This document shows positions 3,782 to 55,158 of a stretch of DNA of 64,000 nt, piece by piece. Each line of letters opens with the position of its first letter. Position 1 is the stretch's first letter. The notes beneath the pieces were generated by a model. The model saw nothing but the letters and a program-made list of their open reading frames with translations, made no database searches and had not been told where the DNA came from. The DNA lies in sequence record AJ697969.1. The stretch is one strand, 5' to 3'. The position numbers and the translations under genes were made by a program. The stretch comes from Pseudomonas phage EL.

Positions 3782-4411
3782 ATGGCTTCAAACCTTCCAA
3801 TCCAAACGATCTTCCTCGACAAATTCGTCGAGTTCAACAAAGACCGCTACAAAGACCAGGCGGAAATGCTCGCCCTCTTTGACGGCCTGACCCTCGCGGA
3901 CATCACGATCTCCGACATCACCGCCGACGGCGCCAACCCCGAGCTGCAAAGCGCCACGGTCACCTCTGTGAGCCGCAACTTCAAAGGTGTCGAACAAAAA
4001 TGGCTCCCGGCGAACATCAACACTCCGTTCGCCTTCGTGGTGGTGAACAAAGGCGCTCCCCTGACCGGCGAAGACCAACTGGCCGAGCAGACCACCCCGG
4101 GTGCCTACGTTTACCTGGTCGGTGAAGGCGAAGAAGCGGTTCAACGCGTGGGCCTGGTGCTGGCTTCCACCACCACCACTGAAACCCAAGCCGCCGACGC
4201 CCTGGCGCTGTTCAAGGCCAACTTCGAATACGTCCTGGACGACGCCGATGTCGATACTGCCACCGCCAAGGTGCTCAAGGTAACCACCAACCCGTTCACC
4301 CGCGGCGAGCTCGTGTACGAAATTGGTAAGGCTCCGATCATCGAGATTCCGGAAACTGACTACGGTCGTCTGGAATTCAAAGAAATCGTTCAACCCGAAC
4401 CCCAACCGTAA
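3782..4411 (+). CDS. hypothetical protein, GC3-rich; paralogue of the 16098-16691 product
   Basis: 209 aa. N-terminus IFLDKFVEFNKDRYKD..LTLADITISD matches LFLERFIAFNKERYSD..LTLDNTTLSD of the minus-strand ORF 16098-16691. Codons are strongly G/C-ending, unlike its neighbours. AGAGGATAAAGCAATG SD-like. Confidence 0.7.
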   Translation: MASNLPIQTIFLDKFVEFNKDRYKDQAEMLALFDGLTLADITISDITADGANPELQSATVTSVSRNFKGVEQKWLPANINTPFAFVVVNKGAPLTGEDQLAEQTTPGAYVYLVGEGEEAVQRVGLVLASTTTTETQAADALALFKANFEYVLDDADVDTATAKVLKVTTNPFTRGELVYEIGKAPIIEIPETDYGRLEFKEIVQPEPQP

Positions 4412-4420
4412 GCTAGATAA

Positions 4421-4448
4421 CTACCAAGTGGGCTAGCCCACTTGGTAG
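4421..4448 (+). terminator. hairpin terminator (stem only)
   Basis: ctaccaagtgggc tagc cccacttggtag perfect inverted repeat directly after the stop. Confidence 0.5.
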
Positions 4449-4566
4449 TTTACCTCTCTTCGTACCTCATTTCAATTCCAGTGAATTTCAAATCTACATC
4501 ATCAGTGTGAGCCAGGGGCAATAAAAGTTCACGGATGAATGAATTCTCTTGCAACTGGTGCTTTAA

Positions 4567-5148
4567 ATGTCATTAGGAATATTCACCATGAGTATGAGTA
4601 CTGCTAAAAGGGGTAACTTTTCTACGTCCCCCGGCAAGGAAGACGATGATCTTCCTCTGCACGAGATCCGGGATGCCTTTAATCCCGCGTTTGTGAAAAC
4701 GTTTGACAAACTGGGCCTCGACCCACAATTGATCAAAGAGTTTATTTACGCGCTTGATCTGCTCGACAACATCGTTAAGACCCCCAACTTCGTATCGGGC
4801 AGAATTCTGAATAACCGAGATATCGAAGCGTACGGCGAAGAAGCGGTCTTCGCGTTCAACCGGAATAACAATATCCCGTACTACTACGTGCGGTTGGGTA
4901 TTACCGTGTCGGAAACGGTGTACAAATTGCAGGACGAGTTTCTGGAACGTGATTATCCCAAAACGATCCTGAGTATTCTCCGCCCCATGCGCACGCCCGG
5001 TATTGACGTGACCGTAGACGGCCATCCTTACAACGTAGGGATTACCTTCAAAACGCCTCATCCTTTGTTCGGTTTGGTGAATTACCAAGATCTCCGGACT
5101 GGGATGAACACTTCAGTCCCCTTCCTACTCACTCGGGTGGGACTTTGA
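4567..5148 (+). CDS. hypothetical protein
   Basis: 193-aa ORF. An internal ATG at 4588 with AGGAA SD may be the true start. Confidence 0.5.
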   Translation: MSLGIFTMSMSTAKRGNFSTSPGKEDDDLPLHEIRDAFNPAFVKTFDKLGLDPQLIKEFIYALDLLDNIVKTPNFVSGRILNNRDIEAYGEEAVFAFNRNNNIPYYYVRLGITVSETVYKLQDEFLERDYPKTILSILRPMRTPGIDVTVDGHPYNVGITFKTPHPLFGLVNYQDLRTGMNTSVPFLLTRVGL

Positions 5149-5248
5149 TCCTCTACCTGCTCCACTGGGCTTAACGCTCCGGTGGAGCGGGGTAGGGGTT
5201 ATTACCGCTTTAAATTTTTCAATACACCAACCCAAAAAGGTAATAACC

Positions 5249-6133
5249 ATGCCGAAGAATGAGAACAATCCTGATAAACAAGGTCTTACGTCTATCTCTG
5301 ATGAAGACTTGGATAAGGCACTCAACGAACTGGACAACGCAGGGGAAGACGTAACTCCGGTGTCCGAAGAGACCACTACGCGGCATCCGGGTACGTCGGA
5401 TATCCTCAACCGCTATTCACATCCCGCCCTTCAGCCGAAGAAGGGAACCCCTGAATACATCGAGTGGAAAGCCGCTCTCAAACAGAAGGAGGACCGATTA
5501 GTGGAATCCTTGAAGACTTCGGTGACCCAGGAACATGAAGAGAATGTCCTGAAAGGGAATACCCTGGGTACTAAACCGAAGACCAAGCAGGTAGAAGGCC
5601 TGTTGGAGATGGTGGTTCGTAAGAAGGCTGAACTCACCCAAGAAGACACCGTAGACGCCGCAGAACGCGCATTGGCAGCGCTGAAGCGGGTGCGGGAATA
5701 TAACCGTAAGAAACGTATTCGACTGTGGTGTATTGTTGTCGGGCTCTTGGTGGTTGTGGGAAGTGGTCTCTATGGGGGGTGGATGTTCGTCCAGAAACAA
5801 ATGCTCACCGGTCATTACACCGTGGTCGCGGAGTGCAAAGTCCCTTACGGGGATTTTGAAATTACCGGTAAGCGGTACTACCGCTACGCGTATCAATCGA
5901 TTCTGGGTTACCACCTCGTGGATGAGGGTACGGTCGAAGAAGTCACCGAAGTCAAACTCCCTGGGGATAAAATCATTATCCTGGGATTCGATGCGAGTAA
6001 AGGGAACTGGTGGCGGATGAACTATGACCGGGGAGAATTCGGTACCGTTAAACTCAAACCTACAGATAAGTACTGGTTCGTCGGCGAGAAAGACCGTACC
6101 ACCCTGGTACCTTATCACTCGTTCTGCCATTAA
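5249..6133 (+). CDS. hypothetical membrane-anchored protein
   Basis: 294 aa. Acidic N-terminal half, then one predicted TM helix (IRLWCIVVGLLVVVGSGLYGGWMFV). SD AAAAAGG. Confidence 0.6.
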   Translation: MPKNENNPDKQGLTSISDEDLDKALNELDNAGEDVTPVSEETTTRHPGTSDILNRYSHPALQPKKGTPEYIEWKAALKQKEDRLVESLKTSVTQEHEENVLKGNTLGTKPKTKQVEGLLEMVVRKKAELTQEDTVDAAERALAALKRVREYNRKKRIRLWCIVVGLLVVVGSGLYGGWMFVQKQMLTGHYTVVAECKVPYGDFEITGKRYYRYAYQSILGYHLVDEGTVEEVTEVKLPGDKIIILGFDASKGNWWRMNYDRGEFGTVKLKPTDKYWFVGEKDRTTLVPYHSFCH

Positions 6134-46148: not shown

Positions 46149-47594
46149 ATGAAACCGACTAACATTACCCTCTTAGACCCCCGGACGATTGTTCCGGGTG
46201 TCTTTAAACCTATTACGTCTACAGACTCATTTGAAGGGATGACCCAGAACCTCAATGATGACGGTCTCTTCTCCCTTGACATCTTCGGTAAACTGGGTAG
46301 TAAACAACGTGATAACACGGAAGCGTATATCGACGTTAAACTTCCCATCTTCAATCCCACTTACCTAAAAGCCCTTATACAGATCAAAAGTCTGTATCAT
46401 TCAATTTTGAAAGGGTCGGAATACGCGGTATGGGATCCCGAACTGAAGGATTTCATAAAATCGAACATCCTGGAAGGGGAAAAGGGTTTCGCCTTCTTCC
46501 TGAAACACTTCGATGAAACCGTCTTCTCCCTGACCCCCTCTCATAAACGCAAACAACGGGTAGAACTGGCGAACCAATTCCGTAACACGGCGTTAACGGA
46601 TAAGGTCCTGGTCATCCCCGCGGGTCTCAGGGATATCCAATTCAATCCAGATGGTTCCCACACCGAACCTGAAATCACTGAATTCTACCGCGCCTTAATG
46701 TTCCGGGTGAGAGTGATCCTCGGGAATAAGGAAGATGCCCTGAACCCCCTTTACGATACCGTTCGGTGGGGGGTACAGAATGCTTTCTTGGAATTGGATA
46801 ATTACCTCTTTGGTTTACTCCAGGGGAAAGGGGGTGTTCTCCAGCGTCGTATGTCCACCCGAGGGGTTCACAACAGCACCCGGAACGTCATTACCGCCCG
46901 TAAAGTCTCCAGGACACGTTTAGACTTCGACGACGGTGTAGGTCCTAACTCTGCGGACATGGGACTCTACCAAGCCCTGCTGAACTTCCCTTATGTCTGC
47001 ATCAATGCGTTAACCAACGGCTACCTTTCCAACATCTTCACCCCCAGCTCTCAAACCGCTAAGCTGGTGAATACCAAGACCCTGGAATACGAATACGCTG
47101 AAGTCTCCCCTGAGGTGGTAGAGAAATGGACCACCGCCACCGGGTTAATGAAACTCTTCAACGGGTTTGCCGATCCCTCCTTACGGAGTAAACCCATTGT
47201 CATTGAGTGGAAATACTTAGCCCTCATTTATGATGATGGGACTGATGTGTGTGTTCTCCATGACATCAACGATCTCCCTCAAGGGAAAGACCGTAAATGG
47301 GTGAAACCTATCACCTACATGGAACTCTTCTACTTGAGTTGCCACAGTGTCATCGAAGAACAGATTACAGGACAAACCCGGTATCCCATTACGGGGATTG
47401 GCTCTATCTTCCCGGCTAAGGTTAACCTACGTACCACCACCAATGCGAGCCAGCGGGTCATTCGTAATCCGATTGATTGGAGTGTGCGGGAAACCTGTAA
47501 ACGGTTCCCTAAACGTGAAGCCCACCCCGATTACTTCGATGCCATGTCCGTAGACCCCTCTAGAGAAGCTTTGCTCGACAGTGACCATGATTAG
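46149..47594 (+). CDS. multisubunit RNA polymerase beta-prime-like subunit, N-terminal fragment (exon 1)
   Basis: [25 protein letters not shown] aligns with E. coli beta-prime [39 protein letters not shown] occupies the place of the NADFDGDQMAVH catalytic loop. The stop TAG 47592-47594 coincides with the start of the group I intron. Confidence 0.7.
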   Translation: [481 protein letters not shown]

Positions 47595-49354
47595 ATAGTG
47601 ATGCATGATATAAACTCACTATACAACTCCTATTGTATGCGGAAGTGTTCGCATTCGACCATAAGGAGTTGTAAAGATGCTAACGTGTTTTGGAAAGAAA
47701 TACGTGTTGTCTACAACCAACACGGTTTACAATGTCACCGATAAGACAGATGTTCCAGTCCATCGGATGACAGACGGGAATACGTTCTTCATCGCACGGG
47801 GCGATGAAAACGAACTGGTTAAGATCAAACTGGGGTTAATGATCCTCCATGGAGAAGGAAAGTTCCATCTTCCTCTCTCTGAATGGGAACAGGTGAAAGT
47901 AGGTTTTCTGGATGACGATACAGGAAACTTTGCAGCGGATAACCTTTACTTGGTCTATCCTGAAGAGGGCATCCCTTACCCTGAACTCTCTGGGTACTAC
48001 TACATCCCTGGGTTTGAACTCAACGCAATCAACCGAGACGGTGTGGTATACCGAACAGTTAGAAAGAATCTTTACCCACCGTATCTGGGTGGTAACACCG
48101 TTCCTAACAGTTTCTACCCCTTTGTTCGACTGGATGTGGTCAGTGGGGATGAACGCAAGTATGTCCACCGGCTACTGGCGGAGACCTTCGGTAAGCCGCC
48201 TAAGGGCTACCCCAAGCTACTGGTCGACCATAATGACGGTAACAAGATGAACTTCAAGCTCTTTAACTTGATTTGGGTTACCGCTAAGGACAACTCCTTC
48301 AAAGCGTACAACAATCAAGAAGCGAGAGCGGACAATAATCCCTTGGAGGTTTTTGACAGGGAATTAGGTCAAGTCTTTAAGTACGTCAGTCAAAATGAGT
48401 TTGCGAGAACCATGGAGGTGGATTCTTGGTGCATTAGTCTGGTACTCAAACGTCCTCGTTCAGTGTACAAGAACAGGTACGTTCTTCGTCGGAAGGGAGA
48501 TACACGTGACTTCCAAGAGATCTGGGACTATAAGCCCCCTGTGGGTAAGAAGATCCTTGCCCGGAATGTCTTCACCGGTGAAATCACGGTGTATAATTCA
48601 TTGGCGGAGGCCTCTAGAGCAACACAGGTAGGGACAACAGGCATCCTGACGTCCCTGAGTAACACCAACCCGAGATCCGCCTTTAAAGACCTTCAATTCA
48701 AGCGGGAGTCTGACGAGACCCCTTGGCCTGATTTGAATGAATACGAACTGGAATGCATCCGGCGCAAGATGCACCCTGCTACAGCTGTGTATGAAATGTT
48801 TGATTCGGTAACCCAGGAGACGTCGATTGTGTATGGCGTTGATGCAGTTACCCGAATCACCGGAGCCAATCCCCGTACCGTTATCGTTTGCGCACGAGAA
48901 GGTAAGTTGCTCCATTCCCGTTATCGTTTCAAGAAACTTACACGTTAACGAGTTTATATCCATCACTTAGTCCGGCTAGGCACGAAAGTCCTAGACCGTA
49001 TTCCTCTGAATTGCTGGGAGTTCACAAAAGTCTGTTGGCTACAACGTAACTGGAAACAGTAAGCGTGAATGCGACCGAAAGGTAGAAAGAACAACAGACC
49101 TGACCTACGCTAACCAATAACGCTAAGGGTCGTAAACAAGGGACAATCAGCCGCTAAGACGCTACCGGGTATTAAACCCTATGCGTAAAGTTCAACGACT
49201 AAGGGAGTTATGACCCTGTACACCTACCAAGGAAGGGGGTGGAAGTGGAGGAGACCTAAGGGGGAATAGACCTATTCCCTACGGTCAAGATATAGTCTGG
49301 CCCTGTTTAATAAACAGGCAGGCACCTGAGTGTGCCGGGTCCTAGTACGGACTG
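47592..49354 (+). mobile_element. group I intron (about 1.76 kb) carrying an HNH homing endonuclease ORF
   Basis: Core elements downstream of the ORF: P-like CTGAATTGCTGGGAG (~49016), Q-like AATCAGCCGC (~49158), R GTTCAACGACTAAGG (49188-49202), S CAAGATATAGTCTGG (~49289-49303). These match the Tetrahymena intron R GUUCACAGACUAAA and S AAGAUAUAGUCGG. Then P9-type hairpins cctgtttaataaacagg, ggcacctgagtgtgcc, gtcctagtacggac. Boundaries are approximate and chosen to keep the frame. Confidence 0.6.
47677..48948 (+). CDS. HNH homing endonuclease (intron-encoded)
   Basis: 423 aa, AAGGAG SD. HNH core LLVDHNDGNKMNFKLFNLIWVT (H-x-DGNK-N....NL.WVT). Confidence 0.8.
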   Translation: MLTCFGKKYVLSTTNTVYNVTDKTDVPVHRMTDGNTFFIARGDENELVKIKLGLMILHGEGKFHLPLSEWEQVKVGFLDDDTGNFAADNLYLVYPEEGIPYPELSGYYYIPGFELNAINRDGVVYRTVRKNLYPPYLGGNTVPNSFYPFVRLDVVSGDERKYVHRLLAETFGKPPKGYPKLLVDHNDGNKMNFKLFNLIWVTAKDNSFKAYNNQEARADNNPLEVFDRELGQVFKYVSQNEFARTMEVDSWCISLVLKRPRSVYKNRYVLRRKGDTRDFQEIWDYKPPVGKKILARNVFTGEITVYNSLAEASRATQVGTTGILTSLSNTNPRSAFKDLQFKRESDETPWPDLNEYELECIRRKMHPATAVYEMFDSVTQETSIVYGVDAVTRITGANPRTVIVCAREGKLLHSRYRFKKLTR

Positions 49355-49546
49355 ACCACCGCGGGCGATCAATTGTCGAGCCATTCTGTTGTAGCGGAAG
49401 ACAGCAAACAACAGGCCTACGAACTCTTTGGGAAACGGGAGTATTACATCAGTGGTACGGGTCGGTTTTTGTACGATCCGATCAATGAACCGATTCTCTT
49501 TATGTTTAAAGCAGCGACGAGCGGCTTAGAGGATATTGAGGTATGA
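49355..49546 (+). CDS. putative exon 2 of the beta-prime-like gene (C-terminal ~63 codons)
   Basis: Frame-2 open stretch from 49346 (..TTAGDQLSSHSVVAEDSKQQAYELFGKREYYISGTGRFLYDPINEPILFMFKAATSGLEDIEV) ends in TGA overlapping ATG 49543 (ATGA). It has no start codon or SD of its own, consistent with an exon. Confidence 0.35.
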   Translation, partial: TTAGDQLSSHSVVAEDSKQQAYELFGKREYYISGTGRFLYDPINEPILFMFKAATSGLEDIEV

Positions 49547-52500
49547 GCAATCCAATTACGTATTCCGAGTTCTTTAAGCACTTTGTGCTGCGTAAGAAAC
49601 AAGACGTTGTAAACCCTAAAGTCCTGGGTATTGGTGAAGTGATCCTTCCTAAGGGGAGTTTACTGCACTTCGTACCGAAGACGATTAACGAAAAGGGACC
49701 GGGTAGTAGTGAAGCGTTTATCAGTAACTTCCCTAAAGAGGTCTTTATTGAGTTTGTAAGGGACGGGTATAAGCCGGTGATGGGGCATGGGCGGACAGTC
49801 GCCTATGACTACCCTAAGGCGGTTAAGGCGTACCGGGCGAGTCACTACATGTACAGCTGGGTGCGAGAGATCAGCACGGTGTACAACAAAGAGAACGTGT
49901 TGGTCGTTAAGAACTACGGGATGATTCCTCAGGGGTTCGTTTACCGTCCGAGTATTTTCGTGAATTATGAAAAATACTACAACATGATGCACCTGCTCAT
50001 TGAGAACATCAATGCAGAAGCCGAGAAAGGGGTGCGTCGGCAGTATATGCGGATTGACCTGCCGTTGAACCTGCCGTCCCTGGTTGAGCTTGAGAAAGAC
50101 TACGGACGGTTTATTGATGGGTTTAATGATGGGCATCCTGTCCTGATGCGCAATATGTTGGAGAGTACGAAGGCTGAGAACTGCTATTGGCTGTTGGACC
50201 TACTGGGGTTCCTGTTTGGCCAGTATTCGTTCAGTTTGTTCGGTAAACTCACCGACCAGGCGTATAAGGATTTGCATATCCTCTTTACGTCACAAAGTAA
50301 AGTCATTGTAGTACAACTGGGGCTGTTGAAGGGTTGGTTAGATGAAACAAATCCTAAAGACGAGAAAACCTACCCCTCTGCTCGGAAAGAGTTTGAAAGT
50401 CTGAAGACATTGACCCGCCATAATGCGGTTAAACGTTTCTATTTGGCTTTGATGAATCTTTCTCGTGGAGGCGTTCCTGAGAATGTACTCATTAAAGAGG
50501 AAACGAAAAATGTCATCCCAATTGCCGGAGAGAAAGGTACCGTTGACCAAGTGGCTGCGGGAACGTCACGAGAAGAAGAAGAAGAAACATCCAATCTTCC
50601 AGAAACCCGAGACCATACTGGCTCGGGCACGGTTCCCCGTGCTGATCGTCCTGCTGGTTCTATCCTTGATGTTTTCAGCCGAAGTGAAGGACCTGGCGAG
50701 GCACATGACGAAGAGCAAGACACAGCGGGAGAACGAGGTGCTGATTCAAATCTTGAAGAGTGGACATCGCCGGTAGATGATGAACTGCTGGAGGTGGAGA
50801 AAGTCCAAACCGAGATCAATACCAACAAGAATGTGTTTAAGACGCCTGAGAGTGGTGTAAAGCGGGCGTTGGAGGAGCGGGCTAAGGAAGGTACGCTGAC
50901 GGTGGCTGAACATGATTTCTTCATGCGTAAAGCGACCCGTTATCAGCACATTGAGATGGAGAACGGTCAAACGTTCGAAGAGTTCATTCAGATCAAACCC
51001 GAAGAGGTTAAAGACCTGGGTGGAGAGATTGAAGGTGAGTTTCTCCCCGTACTGGATGAGAGCATGTTGCGGAGTCGTGCCAAATCCCTCAAGATCGAAT
51101 ATCCTCAGAAGTTTTTACACCGGGATATTGGTCGAATGGTGTTGGGTCTTCAGAACGCTGGCTTTGCGATGAACGACTACCGGCGTGAGAAGGTCGTCAG
51201 CGTAGAAGGCAGTTACGAGGTCCACAGCATTCAGTTACACGAAGTCAATGGTGATCAGGTCACTGTACATACTCGGTTGCCTACGGTGCTGAAAGACGGC
51301 ACCTACGTCATTGATGGTGTTAAGCAACACATGCAACTGCAACGTCGGGAGAAACCTTTCCGGAAGATCAGTCCTCGGGAAGTGGTGCTGTCGAGCTATT
51401 ACGACCGTAAGCTCATGGTGAGTCGTAGTCCGAAGATGGTGGATAACCTCTCTACGTTCATGGTGAAGCAAATCTCCCTCCAGAGTAAGCGGAAAGGGTA
51501 TACGGTCACTAAAGGCAGTACGTGGGATCGCTCCCTTAAAGCCCCCCGGATTTACAGCATTCTGGCTCGTCAGTACAAGTACATTACTGTCGACGGGTTG
51601 GTATTGGACTTCCGGTTGAAGGATCTCCTGGAACTCCACCCTGAGTTCAAAGCCTATACCCGCCCTGATCGGTTCTTGATTGGGGTAAAAGACGGATTAC
51701 CTTTGATCATTGATGATTACGGTAACCTGTACAAAGGGGAAGAGGAACTCGGTACTGTTGAAGACTTGCTCGGTATTGATGTTCGTAAAGCGCCTTTGGA
51801 ACACGTGGTGATTAACATCAGCGGGTATTCGTTTCCGTTGGGAGTGGTCCTGTGCTTCTACTTCGGTATTGATGAACTGTTGCGGGTGATTAAAGCCACG
51901 ACGCGTTCGGTACCCGTAGGGACTCGCCCTAAATTGACGGAGGATGAATACGCGATTCAGTTCAATGACGAATACTTGATCTTTAACCGTCGGGAGAAGC
52001 TCACCACGTTGATCTTCGGTGGAATGCCGAAGTTGAACAACATCAGTAACTTCAGTCGGAGTGATTTGAATAATAACAGTATTTGGAGTGCGTTAATGGG
52101 AGACCCTCGGGTTCGCCCATCTCAGTTCCAGGAAATGAAGAACCTCTTCGATCTCTTTATCGATCCCATTACGAAAGACCTCTTGAAAGAGATGAAGCTG
52201 TCTGAAGACTTCCATTACTTGCTGATTGATGCGGCTAAGGCATTGGAAACGGATTACAGTCGACACGAGGTGGAGATTGAAGAGCAACGCATTGTAGGGT
52301 ATGAACGCTTCGCGGGTCATCTCTACACGGAATTTGTAAAGTCCATTCGTCAATACCGGAATAAGGGGAAAGGACGTAAACACAAACTGGACTTTAATCC
52401 GGACGCGGTTATTATTGCCATTGGTACTGACCGGTCTACGAACTTGGTGGAGGAAGTGAATCCAGTTCACCAAGTGAAGGACCAAGAGGAAGTGACGTTT

Positions 52501-52746
52501 GGGGGTACGGGTGGTCGTAGTGAAATCACCATGGTCAAACGCGCACGGACTCAGCTGGAGAGTTACAAAGGGGTCATCAGTGAAGCCAACAAGGACAGTG
52601 GTAAAGTGGGGTATGTGACCTACACCACCTCTGATCCGGGTATCGCTGATTTCCGAGGCAATGTTGATCCCAAGAACAAACGTACTCCTACCGGTGACGG
52701 TTCGGTAACTATGAACCTGATGTACGGTGGAACGCATGACGATTGA
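49543..52746 (+). CDS. multisubunit RNA polymerase beta-like subunit, N-terminal fragment (exon 1) with long phage-specific N-terminal extension
   Basis: 1067 aa. GTYVIDGVKQHMQLQ aligns with beta GTFIINGAERVVVSQL. NPVHQVKDQEEVTFGGTGGR aligns with beta Rif-region [20 protein letters not shown]. Acidic low-complexity segment (SREEEEETS..). GAGGA SD. Stop TGA 52744-46 at intron start. Confidence 0.7.
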   Translation: MSNPITYSEFFKHFVLRKKQDVVNPKVLGIGEVILPKGSLLHFVPKTINEKGPGSSEAFISNFPKEVFIEFVRDGYKPVMGHGRTVAYDYPKAVKAYRASHYMYSWVREISTVYNKENVLVVKNYGMIPQGFVYRPSIFVNYEKYYNMMHLLIENINAEAEKGVRRQYMRIDLPLNLPSLVELEKDYGRFIDGFNDGHPVLMRNMLESTKAENCYWLLDLLGFLFGQYSFSLFGKLTDQAYKDLHILFTSQSKVIVVQLGLLKGWLDETNPKDEKTYPSARKEFESLKTLTRHNAVKRFYLALMNLSRGGVPENVLIKEETKNVIPIAGEKGTVDQVAAGTSREEEEETSNLPETRDHTGSGTVPRADRPAGSILDVFSRSEGPGEAHDEEQDTAGERGADSNLEEWTSPVDDELLEVEKVQTEINTNKNVFKTPESGVKRALEERAKEGTLTVAEHDFFMRKATRYQHIEMENGQTFEEFIQIKPEEVKDLGGEIEGEFLPVLDESMLRSRAKSLKIEYPQKFLHRDIGRMVLGLQNAGFAMNDYRREKVVSVEGSYEVHSIQLHEVNGDQVTVHTRLPTVLKDGTYVIDGVKQHMQLQRREKPFRKISPREVVLSSYYDRKLMVSRSPKMVDNLSTFMVKQISLQSKRKGYTVTKGSTWDRSLKAPRIYSILARQYKYITVDGLVLDFRLKDLLELHPEFKAYTRPDRFLIGVKDGLPLIIDDYGNLYKGEEELGTVEDLLGIDVRKAPLEHVVINISGYSFPLGVVLCFYFGIDELLRVIKATTRSVPVGTRPKLTEDEYAIQFNDEYLIFNRREKLTTLIFGGMPKLNNISNFSRSDLNNNSIWSALMGDPRVRPSQFQEMKNLFDLFIDPITKDLLKEMKLSEDFHYLLIDAAKALETDYSRHEVEIEEQRIVGYERFAGHLYTEFVKSIRQYRNKGKGRKHKLDFNPDAVIIAIGTDRSTNLVEEVNPVHQVKDQEEVTFGGTGGRSEITMVKRARTQLESYKGVISEANKDSGKVGYVTYTTSDPGIADFRGNVDPKNKRTPTGDGSVTMNLMYGGTHDD

Positions 52747-53158
52747 GCTGTTGTGAAAACAATAGATCACTCAGTCCAACCAGGGAGTAATCCCTTGTTG
52801 CCATTACCTTTAATTGCGGGAACCTACTGAGAGCCTTATCTACCAAACCCGAGCAGGAAACCAACGGGTGGCCAACCATAACGGGTTGGGGACGGTAATA
52901 ACGATAAGGATTGGGGAACCCTACGCAGCGAAGCACCTACGTATTGTCGAGAGGACAAGATAGGGTGAACGTTCAACGACTACGGATGAAATTTCCGGTA
53001 GAGGTGTCAGGATGATACTTCCAAAAGTAAGGTTGCCCTGTATGCTTGAGGTGTGAATAACACTGAGTACAGGGATGAAATATAGTCTCGTCATCTAAGG
53101 GAAAACCTTAGAGCGTGGTGCTACGCGCACCGGCGGATAGGATATCCGTGAAGAAACG
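52744..53158 (+). ncRNA. group I intron (ORF-less, about 415 nt)
   Basis: P TTAATTGCGGGAACC (~52817; matches Tetrahymena AAAUUGCGGGAAA). Q-like CGCAGCG (~52945). R GTTCAACGACTACGG (52968-52982). S GATGAAATATAGTCTCG (~53073). Hairpins ctaaggGAAAAccttag, ggtgcTACGcgcacc, cggataGgatatccg. Boundaries are approximate. Confidence 0.55.
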
Positions 53159-53200
53159 GTCAAACGAGCAGTATTCACATCGACTCAGGCCTCTCAAGCA

Positions 53201-54277
53201 GTGATGGCTAAGAACTACGAGATCGTTACCCTGAGAACGGGTTACGAGAATGTACTGGCTCACCGGACCTCTGACCTCTACAGCAAAGTAGCCGCTGAAG
53301 ATGGTAAGGTCACTAAAGTGGAGAACGATCGCTTACTCGTCGAATACAAGGACGGAACAACGGACTCGTATCCCTTGGGGTTGGTGATTGGGGAAGCCAG
53401 TGGGGAATATCATCCCCACAGCCGTACCACAGATCTGAAGGTCGGAGATACCTTCCGTAAGGGAGATGTCATCGGTTGGGATGAAAACTGGTTCGGTCGA
53501 GATCCCTTCTGCCCAGGGCAAGTCGGGGTTAAGATGGGTAAAATGTGCCAGATCGTTATGGTGGAAGATCAGGATGTGTACGAGGACTCTATTGCAATTT
53601 CGAAAGAATTGGCGATGGAAGCACGTACCCCATTCATTAAACCCAGTCGGTTTGCCGAGGACGTGTCAAACAACCTGGTAATGCGGGTTAAGGTAGGAGA
53701 TTACGTCGAACAGGACACGATTTTATGTGATATCGAAGAGCCTCACTTGGTGGAGGGCGAGGAGCTTCCTGAGCTCGAAGCAGACATCAACAAACTCGGT
53801 ATCAAACAGATCCGTTCGAAGCATCATGGAAAGATCGTACACATCGATGTTCGGTACAACTCTCCCTTAGACAAGATGTCTGACTCGTTCCGTTCGTTCA
53901 TTGTTCAGAAGGATAAGGAAACGAAACGGAAAGGGTTGGTGGAAGGAACCGGTGTCGAGAACAATGCCATTTCCACGATGTTCAATCTTAATCGTCCCAT
54001 GTTAGGTCCAGGTAAGGCGTTCATTACGTTCTACATCGAGTCGTTAGACCCGAGTACCAATGCGGATAAGTATGTCATTGGGAACCAGATGAAAGCCACT
54101 GTGGGTCGTATCATGGAAAGACCGCTTAAGACCGCCAGTGGGATTGTCATTGATGTGAAGTCGAGCTTTAAAGGGATGTTTAACCGAATGGTGCTCAGTT
54201 TGAGGAACAAGCTGGTTGCTAACGAGTATGGTTACCAAATCACTCGCCAGGCCATTAAACTCTACAGAGGTAAATAA
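53201..54277 (+). CDS. RNA polymerase beta-like subunit, middle fragment (probable exon 2; open frame extends upstream to 53141)
   Basis: [23 protein letters not shown] aligns with beta [37 protein letters not shown] aligns with beta VSGTVIDVQVF. The annotated start is GTG/ATG 53201-53206 without a clear SD. Confidence 0.55.
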   Translation: [358 protein letters not shown]

Positions 54278-54279
54278 CG

Positions 54280-55158
54280 ATGAACTTCCGGACGAAGAAC
54301 GGTTACCGAGACCTGCAAGCGTTGGTTAAGGAACTGGGTCTTTATACCGGGCAGATTGACGGTGTGTGGGGGAAGGGAACTTCCTCCTCCACTGAAACCC
54401 TGCTCCGGGGGTATGCCGAGGTGGTGGGTAAGAATACCGGAGGTATCGGTCTCCCCACCACCTCGGATGCCAGTGGTTATAACGTCATTACAGCGCTCCA
54501 GCGTAATCTGGCCTTCTTGGGTCTCTATTCCCTGACTGTGGATGGTATTTGGGGGAATGGGACCTTGAGTGGCTTGGATAAGGCATTCGAGGTGTACAAG
54601 GAGCGTTACCGCACGCCGACCTACGACATTGCGTGGAGCGGTAAAGTCAGTCCTGCCTTTACGGCGAAAGTGAAGGATTGGTGCGGCGTTCATGTGCCGA
54701 ATCACCGAGCTCCTCATTGGCTGATGGCCTGTATGGCTTTTGAGACCGGCCAGACATTCAGCCCGTCTATTAAGAATGCGGCGGGTTCTGAAGCGTATGG
54801 GTTGATTCAATTCATGAGCCCAGCCGCCAATGATTTGAATGTTCCGTTGAGTGTGATTCGATCTATGGATCAGCTGACTCAATTGGACCTGGTCTTTAAG
54901 TACTTCGAAATGTGGATGAAACGGGGTAAGCGTTATACCCAGCTGGAAGATTTCTATTTGACGATCTTCCATCCGGCCTCAGTAGGTAAGAAGGCTGATG
55001 AAGTCCTCTTCCTTCAGGGGAGTAAAGCGTATCTCCAGAACAAGGGGTTCGATGTAGATAAGGATGGTAAGATCACCCTGGGTGAAATTTCTTCTACATT
55101 GTACACCACGTATTACAAAGGTCTGTTGCCTGAAAATCGTCACGTTATTTCGTATTGA
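54280..55158 (+). CDS. endolysin: two N-terminal peptidoglycan-binding repeats plus C-terminal SLT-type lytic transglycosylase
   Basis: PG_binding-like repeats DLQALVKELGLYTGQIDGVWGKGT and ALQRNLAFLGLYSLTVDGIWGNGT. SLT motif MAFETGQTFSP...AYGLIQFMSPAA (E-S/T...GLxQ). Confidence 0.75.
   Translation: MNFRTKNGYRDLQALVKELGLYTGQIDGVWGKGTSSSTETLLRGYAEVVGKNTGGIGLPTTSDASGYNVITALQRNLAFLGLYSLTVDGIWGNGTLSGLDKAFEVYKERYRTPTYDIAWSGKVSPAFTAKVKDWCGVHVPNHRAPHWLMACMAFETGQTFSPSIKNAAGSEAYGLIQFMSPAANDLNVPLSVIRSMDQLTQLDLVFKYFEMWMKRGKRYTQLEDFYLTIFHPASVGKKADEVLFLQGSKAYLQNKGFDVDKDGKITLGEISSTLYTTYYKGLLPENRHVISY

Follow-up and report, generated by a model that had tools for sequence, protein, structure and literature searches.

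A probable group I intron without an open reading frame in the virion RNA polymerase beta-like gene of Pseudomonas phage EL

Introduction

The beta-like RNA polymerase (RNAP) gene of Pseudomonas phage EL lies in two pieces. In the 64,000-nt stretch of record AJ697969.1 analysed here (the window), an open reading frame (ORF) of 1067 amino acids (aa) is followed on the same strand by one of 358 aa, and the locus raises the question of whether the subunit is made as two polypeptides or from a single gene interrupted by an intron. An earlier note on this DNA, written from the sequence alone, favoured an ORF-less group I intron at positions 52744-53158. We conclude that this segment is very probably a functional ORF-less group I intron of IA type in the virion RNA polymerase (vRNAP) beta gene of an EL-like chimallivirus; the proposal was borne out by an intron-minus allele in close relatives, a covariance-model match, covariation with related introns, the splice-site nucleotides and the protein motif restored on joining the exons. 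By every indication in the sequence the intron is genuine and structurally intact; it is unannotated, belongs to a known kind of intron and sits at the known homing site of phage PhiPA3 gp210. A literature search confined to papers available without subscription returned no explicit description of an intron in EL or Elvirus.

An intron-minus allele defines the boundaries

The region is 99.6% identical to that of Pseudomonas phage phiRU and 97-99% identical to those of six other EL-like jumbo phages (Elvirus, Chimalliviridae). The intron is present in the window and in five EL-like records and absent from phages GXNNE2 and GXNNA8, with an exon divergence of approximately 2%, so that the comparison with related jumbo phages advised in the earlier note did yield intron-minus alleles at the same site. 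GXNNE2 contains one uninterrupted coding sequence (CDS) of 4320 nt, encoding 1439 aa, and in a base-by-base comparison it lacks exactly positions 52744-53158 (415 nt), with no other gap placement fitting. Its junction DNA reads CATGACGAT/GTGAAGCGA (in longer form CATGACGAT/GTGAAGCGAGCAGTATTC; slashes mark junctions throughout), where the window has CATGACGAT, the 415 nt and then GTCAAACGAGCAGTATTC. Both intron-minus phages match the region in two pieces with 82% query coverage, and the gene of GXNNA8 is likewise a single 1439-aa ORF. The splice model put forward previously, which joined 52743 to 53159, coincides with this insertion boundary to the base: exact removal of the insert restores the conserved frame, and the product joined in silico is 1439 aa long with a single stop. 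Given its presence or absence among Elvirus genomes that are otherwise approximately 98% identical, the intron appears to have been gained or lost recently.

Joining 52743 to 53159 creates GGTHDD/VKRAVF, the universal RNAP beta motif (Thermus EHDDANRALMGSNMQTQAV). HMMER aligned the spliced protein to residues 540-695 of Thermus beta as a single stretch spanning the junction, with GGTHDD/VKRAVFTSTQASQAV facing LEHDDANRALMGSNMQTQAV and, further on, YEDSIAISKEL facing FEDAIVISEEL. Because this alignment runs continuously over the junction, it confirms that the insertion lies between the Rif and NGYNFEDSI regions, and that the downstream ORF continues the beta homology, both as had been claimed. 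The insertion site is directly after two conserved Asp codons, equivalent to Escherichia coli RpoB D674/D675. The PhiPA3 annotation notes give EL gp186 and gp187 as the counterparts of PhiPA3 gp211 and gp209, and phiKZ gp178, the vRNAP beta-like subunit, as the counterpart of both; the interrupted gene is the vRNAP beta-like gene, homologue of phiKZ gp178 and EL gp186.

The first three bases of the intron, UGA (52744-52746), form a stop for unspliced RNA, and its last base, G53158, is the omega-G. The downstream frame is open from 53141, following an in-frame TAG at 53138-53140, and extends only six extra codons upstream into the intron with no start codon there. Exon 2 has no Shine-Dalgarno (SD) sequence, and its first in-frame start, at 53201, would remove the conserved KR..F...Q..Q residues. 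The upstream stop, the open downstream frame and the missing SD sequence had all been read correctly in the earlier note, and the last of these, together with the conserved residues that a start at 53201 would discard, makes two separately translated polypeptides a weak proposition.

Ribozyme structure

A sensitive scan of positions 52600-53300 (701 nt) matched the full length of the Rfam group I model RF00028 (1-253) with 40.5 bits and an E-value of 7.5e-9, or approximately 7e-7 when scaled to the whole window; detection required E-value mode on a short stretch. The model placed the ends at 52709 and 53113 and assigned P1 and P2 incorrectly; these assignments were discarded, the true boundaries being those given by the intron-minus allele. 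The minimum free energy (MFE) fold of 52730-53170 was 4.5 standard deviations more stable than folds of shuffled sequences (z -4.5).

All helices from P1 to P9.2 (Table 1) are present and complementary, except for one C.U mismatch in P2 and one A.G mismatch in P5. The core P3-P8 with its P3/P7 pseudoknot was found, and the four conserved elements quoted in the earlier note, P (TTAATTGCGGGAACC, 52810-52824), Q (CGCAGCG, 52924-52930), R (GTTCAACGACTACGG, 52971-52985) and S (GATGAAATATAGTCTCG, 53074-53090), are all in place and pair as P4 and P7. The three terminal hairpins noticed after the core are P9, P9.1 and P9.2. A layout with extra hairpins between P7 and the 3′ strand of P3, plus P9.1 and P9.2, characterises phage introns of subgroup IA, and on that layout we take the window intron to be of IA type. 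Within 52744-53158 the plus strand has no ORF that reaches 50 aa, the three minus-strand ORFs there (51-75 aa) have no Pfam match, and a homing-endonuclease gene is absent from the intron; where its sister introns have ORFs, these encode I-HmuI-type HNH_3/NUMOD1 proteins.

At the 5′ splice site, the MFE fold and the helix map place U52743 in a U.G wobble with G52774 within a 7-bp P1. The corresponding pairing of exon GAU with a GUC(G) guide can be drawn by eye in the introns of phages Totoro and PhiPA3 and of contigs L181, L191 and L093 (L numbers denote our loci). At the 3′ end, G53158 is invariant in all EL-like alleles, whose tails vary, and a terminal G is found in all related introns examined. 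An alternative P1, in which exon ACGAU pairs with GUUGU at 52750-52754 alongside a 3-bp P10, was dropped because 52750-52754 sits in a GAAA-capped hairpin of the MFE fold and because, judged by eye, sister introns allow a GAU-GUC pairing whose guide lies 3′ of a P1-loop hairpin. Separately, the 5′ exon sequence UGAC (52737-52740) is complementary to GUCA of the 3′ exon (53159-53162), a pairing broken by GUGA in the intron-minus allele.

Table 1. Positions in the window of the interrupted gene, the intron helices and the neighbouring ORFs.
Feature	Position	Strand	Remarks
Exon 1, vRNAP beta-like gene	49543..52743	+	Codons 1-1067; ends GGTHDD, Asp codon GAU; from the ORF list, colinear with the GXNNE2 1439-aa CDS
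Group I intron, 415 nt	52744..53158	+	Segment missing from intron-minus allele; RF00028; covariation with five related introns
P1	52741-52747 x 52770-52776	+	Exon GAU and intron UGAG pair with guide CUCAGUC; MFE fold, helix check 7/7
P1-loop hairpin	52748-52765	+	7 bp, GAAA loop; helix check 7/7
P2 hairpin	52777-52800	+	CAACCAGGGA-GUAA-UCCCUUGUUG; one C.U mismatch
P3	52806-52810 x 53029-53033	+	3′ strand AAGGU
P4	52815-52820 x 52919-52927	+	P and Q elements of the earlier note
P5 with long P5a-c extension	52824-52916	+
P6, P6a, P6b	52928-52972	+
R element and P7 region to P3 3′ strand	52971-53033	+
P7	52978-52982 x 53083-53087	+	GACUA x UAGUC; 3′ strand in S element
P7.1	52983-52997	+
P7.2	53001-53021	+
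P8	53036-53042 x 53068-53074	+
P9	53094-53112	+
P9.1	53117-53131	+
P9.2	53134-53148	+	Contains in-frame TAG 53138-53140
3′ tail	ends at G53158	+	UGAAGAAACG; ends at omega-G
Exon 2	53159..54277	+	Codons 1068-1439 and stop; starts VKRAVFTSTQASQAV
2543-aa ORF		-	Precedes beta′-like fragment
beta′-like fragment	46149-47594		ORF list
Intron 1, in adjacent beta′-like gene	47592..49363	+	SDHD/GDQL; core 48945-49317
HNH ORF of intron 1	47677-48948		ORF list
1067-aa ORF	49543-52746		Including stop; ORF list
358-aa ORF	53201-54277		ORF list
Lysin ORF, 292 aa	54280-55158		N-terminal PG_binding_1 domain

Covariation and sequence variation

The window intron was aligned with the ribozymes of Bacillus phage AgentSmith, Serratia phage Totoro, PhiPA3, Klebsiella phage phiKp_32 and Raoultella phage VB_ZK_P1, which score 81.8, 49.0, 67.8, 51.9 and 49.9 bits with RF00028, respectively. 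From these six introns RNAalifold found P3, P4, P5, P6, P8, P9 and P9.1. One of its pairings, between the CUA that is invariant in the R element and a UAG further downstream, was judged spurious, and the canonical P7 pseudoknot was substituted before pairs were counted. Standard pairs occupy 90.9% of cells, a share that drops to 34-45% on sliding partners by 1-3 columns, and 29 of the 55 base pairs have changed on both sides with pairing kept, so that the group I fold asked of covariance analysis is present. The P7 strands GACUA/UAGUC are invariant in all six introns, and the P6 region has compensatory changes relative to phiKp_32 (UUGUC/GACAA versus UCUUC/GAAGA).

Among the EL-like phages, the intron of phiRU is identical to that of the window while the exons differ at 43 of 4320 sites; HHBS8_1 and HHBS47_1 have one intron difference against 81 exon sites, and the IR-QUMS intron differs at five sites. 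The pooled segregating sites (6/415 in the intron, 144/4320 in the exons; p ~0.02) indicate that the intron is the better conserved. Intron variants fall in loops or the tail, with the exception of T52796G (HHBS8_1, HHBS47_1 and MIZ-Pa99), which turns the C.U mismatch of P2 into a C-G pair. The allele of MIZ-Pa99 is more divergent. Two synonymous differences in the 3′ exon, at +3 and +6, are fixed between intron-plus (GTC AAA) and intron-minus (GTG AAG) alleles, and exon differences between the two are denser near the site; the +3/+6 changes may be an aid to splicing, a change to an endonuclease site or the result of hitch-hiking.

Predicted splicing and alternative readings

In the pre-mRNA, P1 would form between the GAU at the end of exon 1 and the guide GUC of the intron, placing the U.G wobble at the splice site. 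A guanosine from outside, held in P7, would attack after U52743, and the released exon would then attack after G53158, joining GGTHDD to VKRAVF. The mRNA junction would read CATGACGAT/GTCAAACGA and the product would be one 1439-aa subunit with the junction peptide TPTGDGSVTMNLMYGGTHDDVK, spanning ...NLMYGGTHDDVK. Translation of unspliced RNA would stop at the intron-initial UGA.

Several points weigh against a functional intron. The RF00028 score of 40.5 bits is below the curated gathering score of 50, for which reason a default Rfam scan misses the intron and reports only the one in the adjacent beta′-like gene (intron 1); we ascribe the shortfall to large insertions (the P5 extension and P7.1/P7.2) and to the mis-assigned P1 and P2. 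A by-eye comparison of the guide region with the 3′ exon sequence GUCAAA found no convincing P10, only the 4-bp exon-exon pairing UGAC/GUCA; P10 is dispensable in many group I introns. The covariation score, which none of 500 shuffles reached, belongs to a structure derived from the very alignment used to test it. The GXNNE2 and GXNNA8 records come from the same laboratory and have identical genome lengths, and so the two intron-minus alleles may represent one lineage. The case for catalysis and for splicing in infected cells is built on sequence, and in phiKZ the predicted intron-associated endonuclease loci showed no splicing in full-length (long-read) transcriptomics (PMC10914365); predicted jumbo-phage introns are thus not always active.

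One alternative is that the element is an inactive relic or natural gene split, in which the ribozyme has decayed and beta is made as two polypeptides that assemble. Division of beta and beta′ among several polypeptides is indeed natural in jumbo phages (PMC7598289), public records list the halves as two separate 'RNA polymerase beta subunit' CDSs, and both the sub-gathering score and the phiKZ result would fit. We nevertheless regard this alternative as improbable, since it is the most conserved beta motif that is broken, exon 2 lacks an SD sequence and a start at 53201 would cost 14-15 conserved residues. Decay is also hard to reconcile with core helices that are all intact, with polymorphisms that avoid or repair paired positions and with an intron more conserved than the exon sites, and close relatives encode the protein in one piece. 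Joining of the halves by a split intein, a device reported along with fractured genes and HNH endonucleases in jumbo phages (MIJ3 DNA polymerase, PMC6892783), is barely conceivable here and was rejected, given that exon 1 ends exactly at DD, exon 2 has only six extra open codons and no start, neither exon end has intein-sized extra coding sequence and what lies between the exons is a group I ribozyme.

A recurrent insertion site in the vRNAP beta gene

Birkholz et al. (2024, Science, PMC11620839) place the PhiPA3 gp210 intron right behind a pair of conserved Asp residues, of which the second corresponds to E. coli RpoB D675. The PhiPA3 DNA, GATGAT/...CTCG/ATGAAACGC (NDD/MKR), has its break at the codon boundary that is also used in the window. 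The two introns have in common the gene (gp211/gp209 in PhiPA3), the boundary, the GAU exon end, the guide GUC (by eye), the omega-G, an RF00028 core (67.8 bits in PhiPA3) and a UGAAGA...CG tail. The PhiPA3 intron differs in being approximately 1.35 kb long and encoding the HNH nickase gp210, whereas the window intron has 415 nt and no ORF, and it lacks both the long P5 extension and the GUAA-loop P2 of the window intron. In a by-eye reading, the gp210 ORF lies after P2, with its SD sequence in the P2 3′ strand.

The same site is occupied in Totoro (YDD/PKR) and in contigs L181 (DRDD/PKR), L191 (MHDD/GKR), L093/L134 (INED/AKR) and L111 (STDD/PKR). As in the window, the inserts of L181, L191 and L093/L134 are ORF-less, measuring approximately 400-470 nt at DD/xKR or ED/xKR; unlike it, Totoro and L111 have ORF-sized inserts. 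Totoro shares with the window a covarying P2 with the same GUAA loop, and P1-loop hairpins recur in some sister introns, for example L181 and L093. Peripheral helices and tails otherwise differ, and exon identity to the window is only 28-45%. Larger inserts in L106 and L117 follow DD on their 5′ side, by which alone they were placed, and phiKp_32 and VB_ZK_P1 are interrupted approximately 10 nt downstream of the window's site. In Totoro, the 10 nt that close the 5′ exon (GTATGACGAT, position 3950 of locus L007) recur 32 nt downstream inside the intron (3982); the repeat may serve as a decoy, may be an alternative 5′ splice site or may be left over from the target site. L151 (IMGVR_UViG_3300027365_000009) carries an insert of approximately 2.1 kb some three codons upstream (PCAD/LHDDAKR), a third insertion point in the motif.

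The closest ribozyme in the phage collection is an unannotated intron of AgentSmith (74.6% identity over 176 nt; 81.8 bits), which also lies in the vRNAP beta gene and has a P5a-c extension that is homologous to that of the window and covaries with it. It differs in occupying another site (the GNQMK motif near the C-terminus), in carrying a 411-aa NUMOD endonuclease ORF and in its 3′ tail, GGACAUAAAG, which is of the other type. That the closest ribozyme occupies a different site in the same gene suggests that cores and sites have been reshuffled. The host gene, AGENTSMITH_111 (locus L006, 1-2833), is annotated as a 'putative HNH endonuclease' and is really an intron-interrupted vRNAP beta homologue; the intron ORF, AGENTSMITH_112, has NUMOD1 and NUMOD4 domains. 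Two types of 3′ tail were seen, UGAAGAnnnCG in the window, PhiPA3, Totoro, L093 and L111, and a GAACAUAAnG-like type in L181, L191, L117, L106, phiKp_32 and AgentSmith, and tail type is independent of insertion site and ORF content. In phiKp_32 (locus L004), an ORF-less intron interrupts the beta′ gene at GDFD/GDQL (approximately 266-640; RF00028 37.5 bits at 270-600) and an intron with an HNH ORF the beta gene (approximately 3980-5394), a mirror image of the arrangement in the window.

The gene is unbroken in most homologues: 281 of 293 phage records cover 80% or more of the junction query at a single place, a count that takes in the five intron-plus EL-like records, whose two pieces were joined by the search tool. 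All of the best 80 IMG/VR loci in a protein-based survey were likewise uninterrupted, an outcome of a ranking that favours full-length matches; the interrupted IMG/VR loci were found with a DNA pattern from P6-P7. This pattern matches at least 120 viral contigs, indicating that the ribozyme type is common, and among the matches listed the beta region is interrupted at or near the site in at least eight contigs. Judged by these alignments, the Asp-Asp site of the vRNAP gene is a recurrent insertion hot spot, used in Pseudomonas and Serratia jumbo phages and in uncultivated relatives.

The intron also resembles the classical subgroup IA2 introns (T4 td, nrdB and sunY; Twort; the SPO1/SP82 DNA polymerase introns with I-HmuI) in having P7.1/P7.2 and P9.1/P9.2, in interrupting a gene for an essential enzyme where it is most conserved and in the existence of ORF-less and HNH-bearing versions (PMC12908238). 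Unlike them, it resides in a multisubunit RNAP gene of a nucleus-forming phage. In such phages splicing would occur away from ribosomes, and the intron would offer a convenient test of group I splicing uncoupled from translation.

The finding extends the 'weaponised intron' story of PhiPA3 by showing that ORF-less and endonuclease-bearing introns share one site. The main value of the intron lies in its being part of a recurrent hot spot for which natural intron-plus and intron-minus Elvirus pairs exist; these pairs infect the same host as PhiPA3 and phiKZ and are usable for competition and homing experiments.

Origin of the ORF-less state

The earlier note had described two introns in adjacent RNAP genes, one of them with an endonuclease, and this is the case: intron 1 interrupts the catalytic motif SDHD/GDQL (the NADFDGD equivalent) of the beta′-like gene and carries an HNH ORF upstream of a ribozyme core that, at 51.1 bits, scores above gathering. 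Both are group I introns in catalytic motifs of neighbouring RNAP genes with 5′ exons ending in GAU (the last base of intron 1 is G49363), but intron 2, that of the beta gene, lacks an ORF and the ribozymes are not specifically related. The R element is shared as claimed, over 12 contiguous nt (GTTCAACGACTA) rather than 13, and otherwise there is only an 18-nt match around it. Since R is a family-wide feature of RF00028 (consensus GUUCAaAGACUA), it implies no special kinship of the two introns.

How the beta intron came to be without an ORF has two main candidate answers. Endonuclease-driven homing followed by a clean loss of the HNH ORF, leaving the 18-nt P1-loop hairpin in the manner expected of a late stage of the homing cycle, may well be correct, at a little under an even chance; as the explanation offered in the earlier note it is plausible but unproven. 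ORF-sized inserts occur in the same-site introns of PhiPA3, Totoro and L111 and in L106 (placed by its 5′ side), and those of their ORFs that were tested are I-HmuI-like HNH/NUMOD proteins. Read by eye, Totoro has its ORF in the P1 loop, a place taken in the window by no more than a short hairpin, and the fixed +3/+6 differences and the enrichment of exon differences near the site are also in keeping with past homing. However, the intron retains no ORF remnant, ORF-less forms are common at the site (L181, L191 and L093/L134), and the direction of change is not rootable from these data. Endonucleases from the sister introns are no more than 22-33% identical and their ORFs lie at different ribozyme positions (again by eye, the P1 loop for Totoro, 3′ of P2 for PhiPA3), which together suggest independent insertions into ORF-less introns; repeated ORF gain fits the sister-intron pattern equally well as ORF loss.

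The other answer is that this ribozyme never had an ORF of its own and spread through recombination, through co-conversion or with the help in trans of an endonuclease from another locus, such as the HNH protein of intron 1, a history that we consider quite possible while leaning against it. That protein, encoded approximately 3.8 kb upstream of intron 2, is the only related endonuclease in the window, and the mirror arrangement of phiKp_32 is what such a history could also produce. The 0-1 intron differences between phages whose exons are 1-2% apart would fit recent lateral spread. Against a role for intron 1, GXNNE2 keeps it together with its HNH ORF yet lacks intron 2, and hence the two introns are not obligatorily linked.

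A doubtful extension is that the ORF-less intron is kept as protection and is no parasite in decay, the occupied and rewritten site in an essential vRNAP gene rendering EL-like phages resistant to gp210-type HNH nickases, the weapons of co-infecting Pseudomonas chimalliviruses such as PhiPA3. Were this so, intron-minus relatives such as GXNNE2 would stay vulnerable, and the beta DD/xKR and beta′ DxD/GD sites would be arms-race hot spots at which ribozymes and endonucleases are swapped independently, a picture that the mirror-image states of EL-like phages and phiKp_32 would fit.

Annotation and neighbouring genes

The gene order of the window is consistent with gp183-gp188 of phage EL. In the annotated public EL-like records examined, the gene appears as two 'RNA polymerase beta subunit' CDSs or its second half is unannotated, and the intron is marked in none; an essential gene is thereby split in public records, and default Rfam scanning does not reveal why. 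Small 'hypothetical protein' CDSs annotated within the intron in the HHBS8_1, MIZ-Pa99 and HHBS47_1 records are spurious. Sequence quality is the probable reason for the numerous single-T deletions and the altered 5′ end of the intron in the MIZ-Pa99 record, which is labelled Straboviridae. Directly 3′ of the RNAP gene lies the 292-aa ORF at 54280-55158, an endolysin of the EL gp188 type that is annotated as 'lysin' in relatives.

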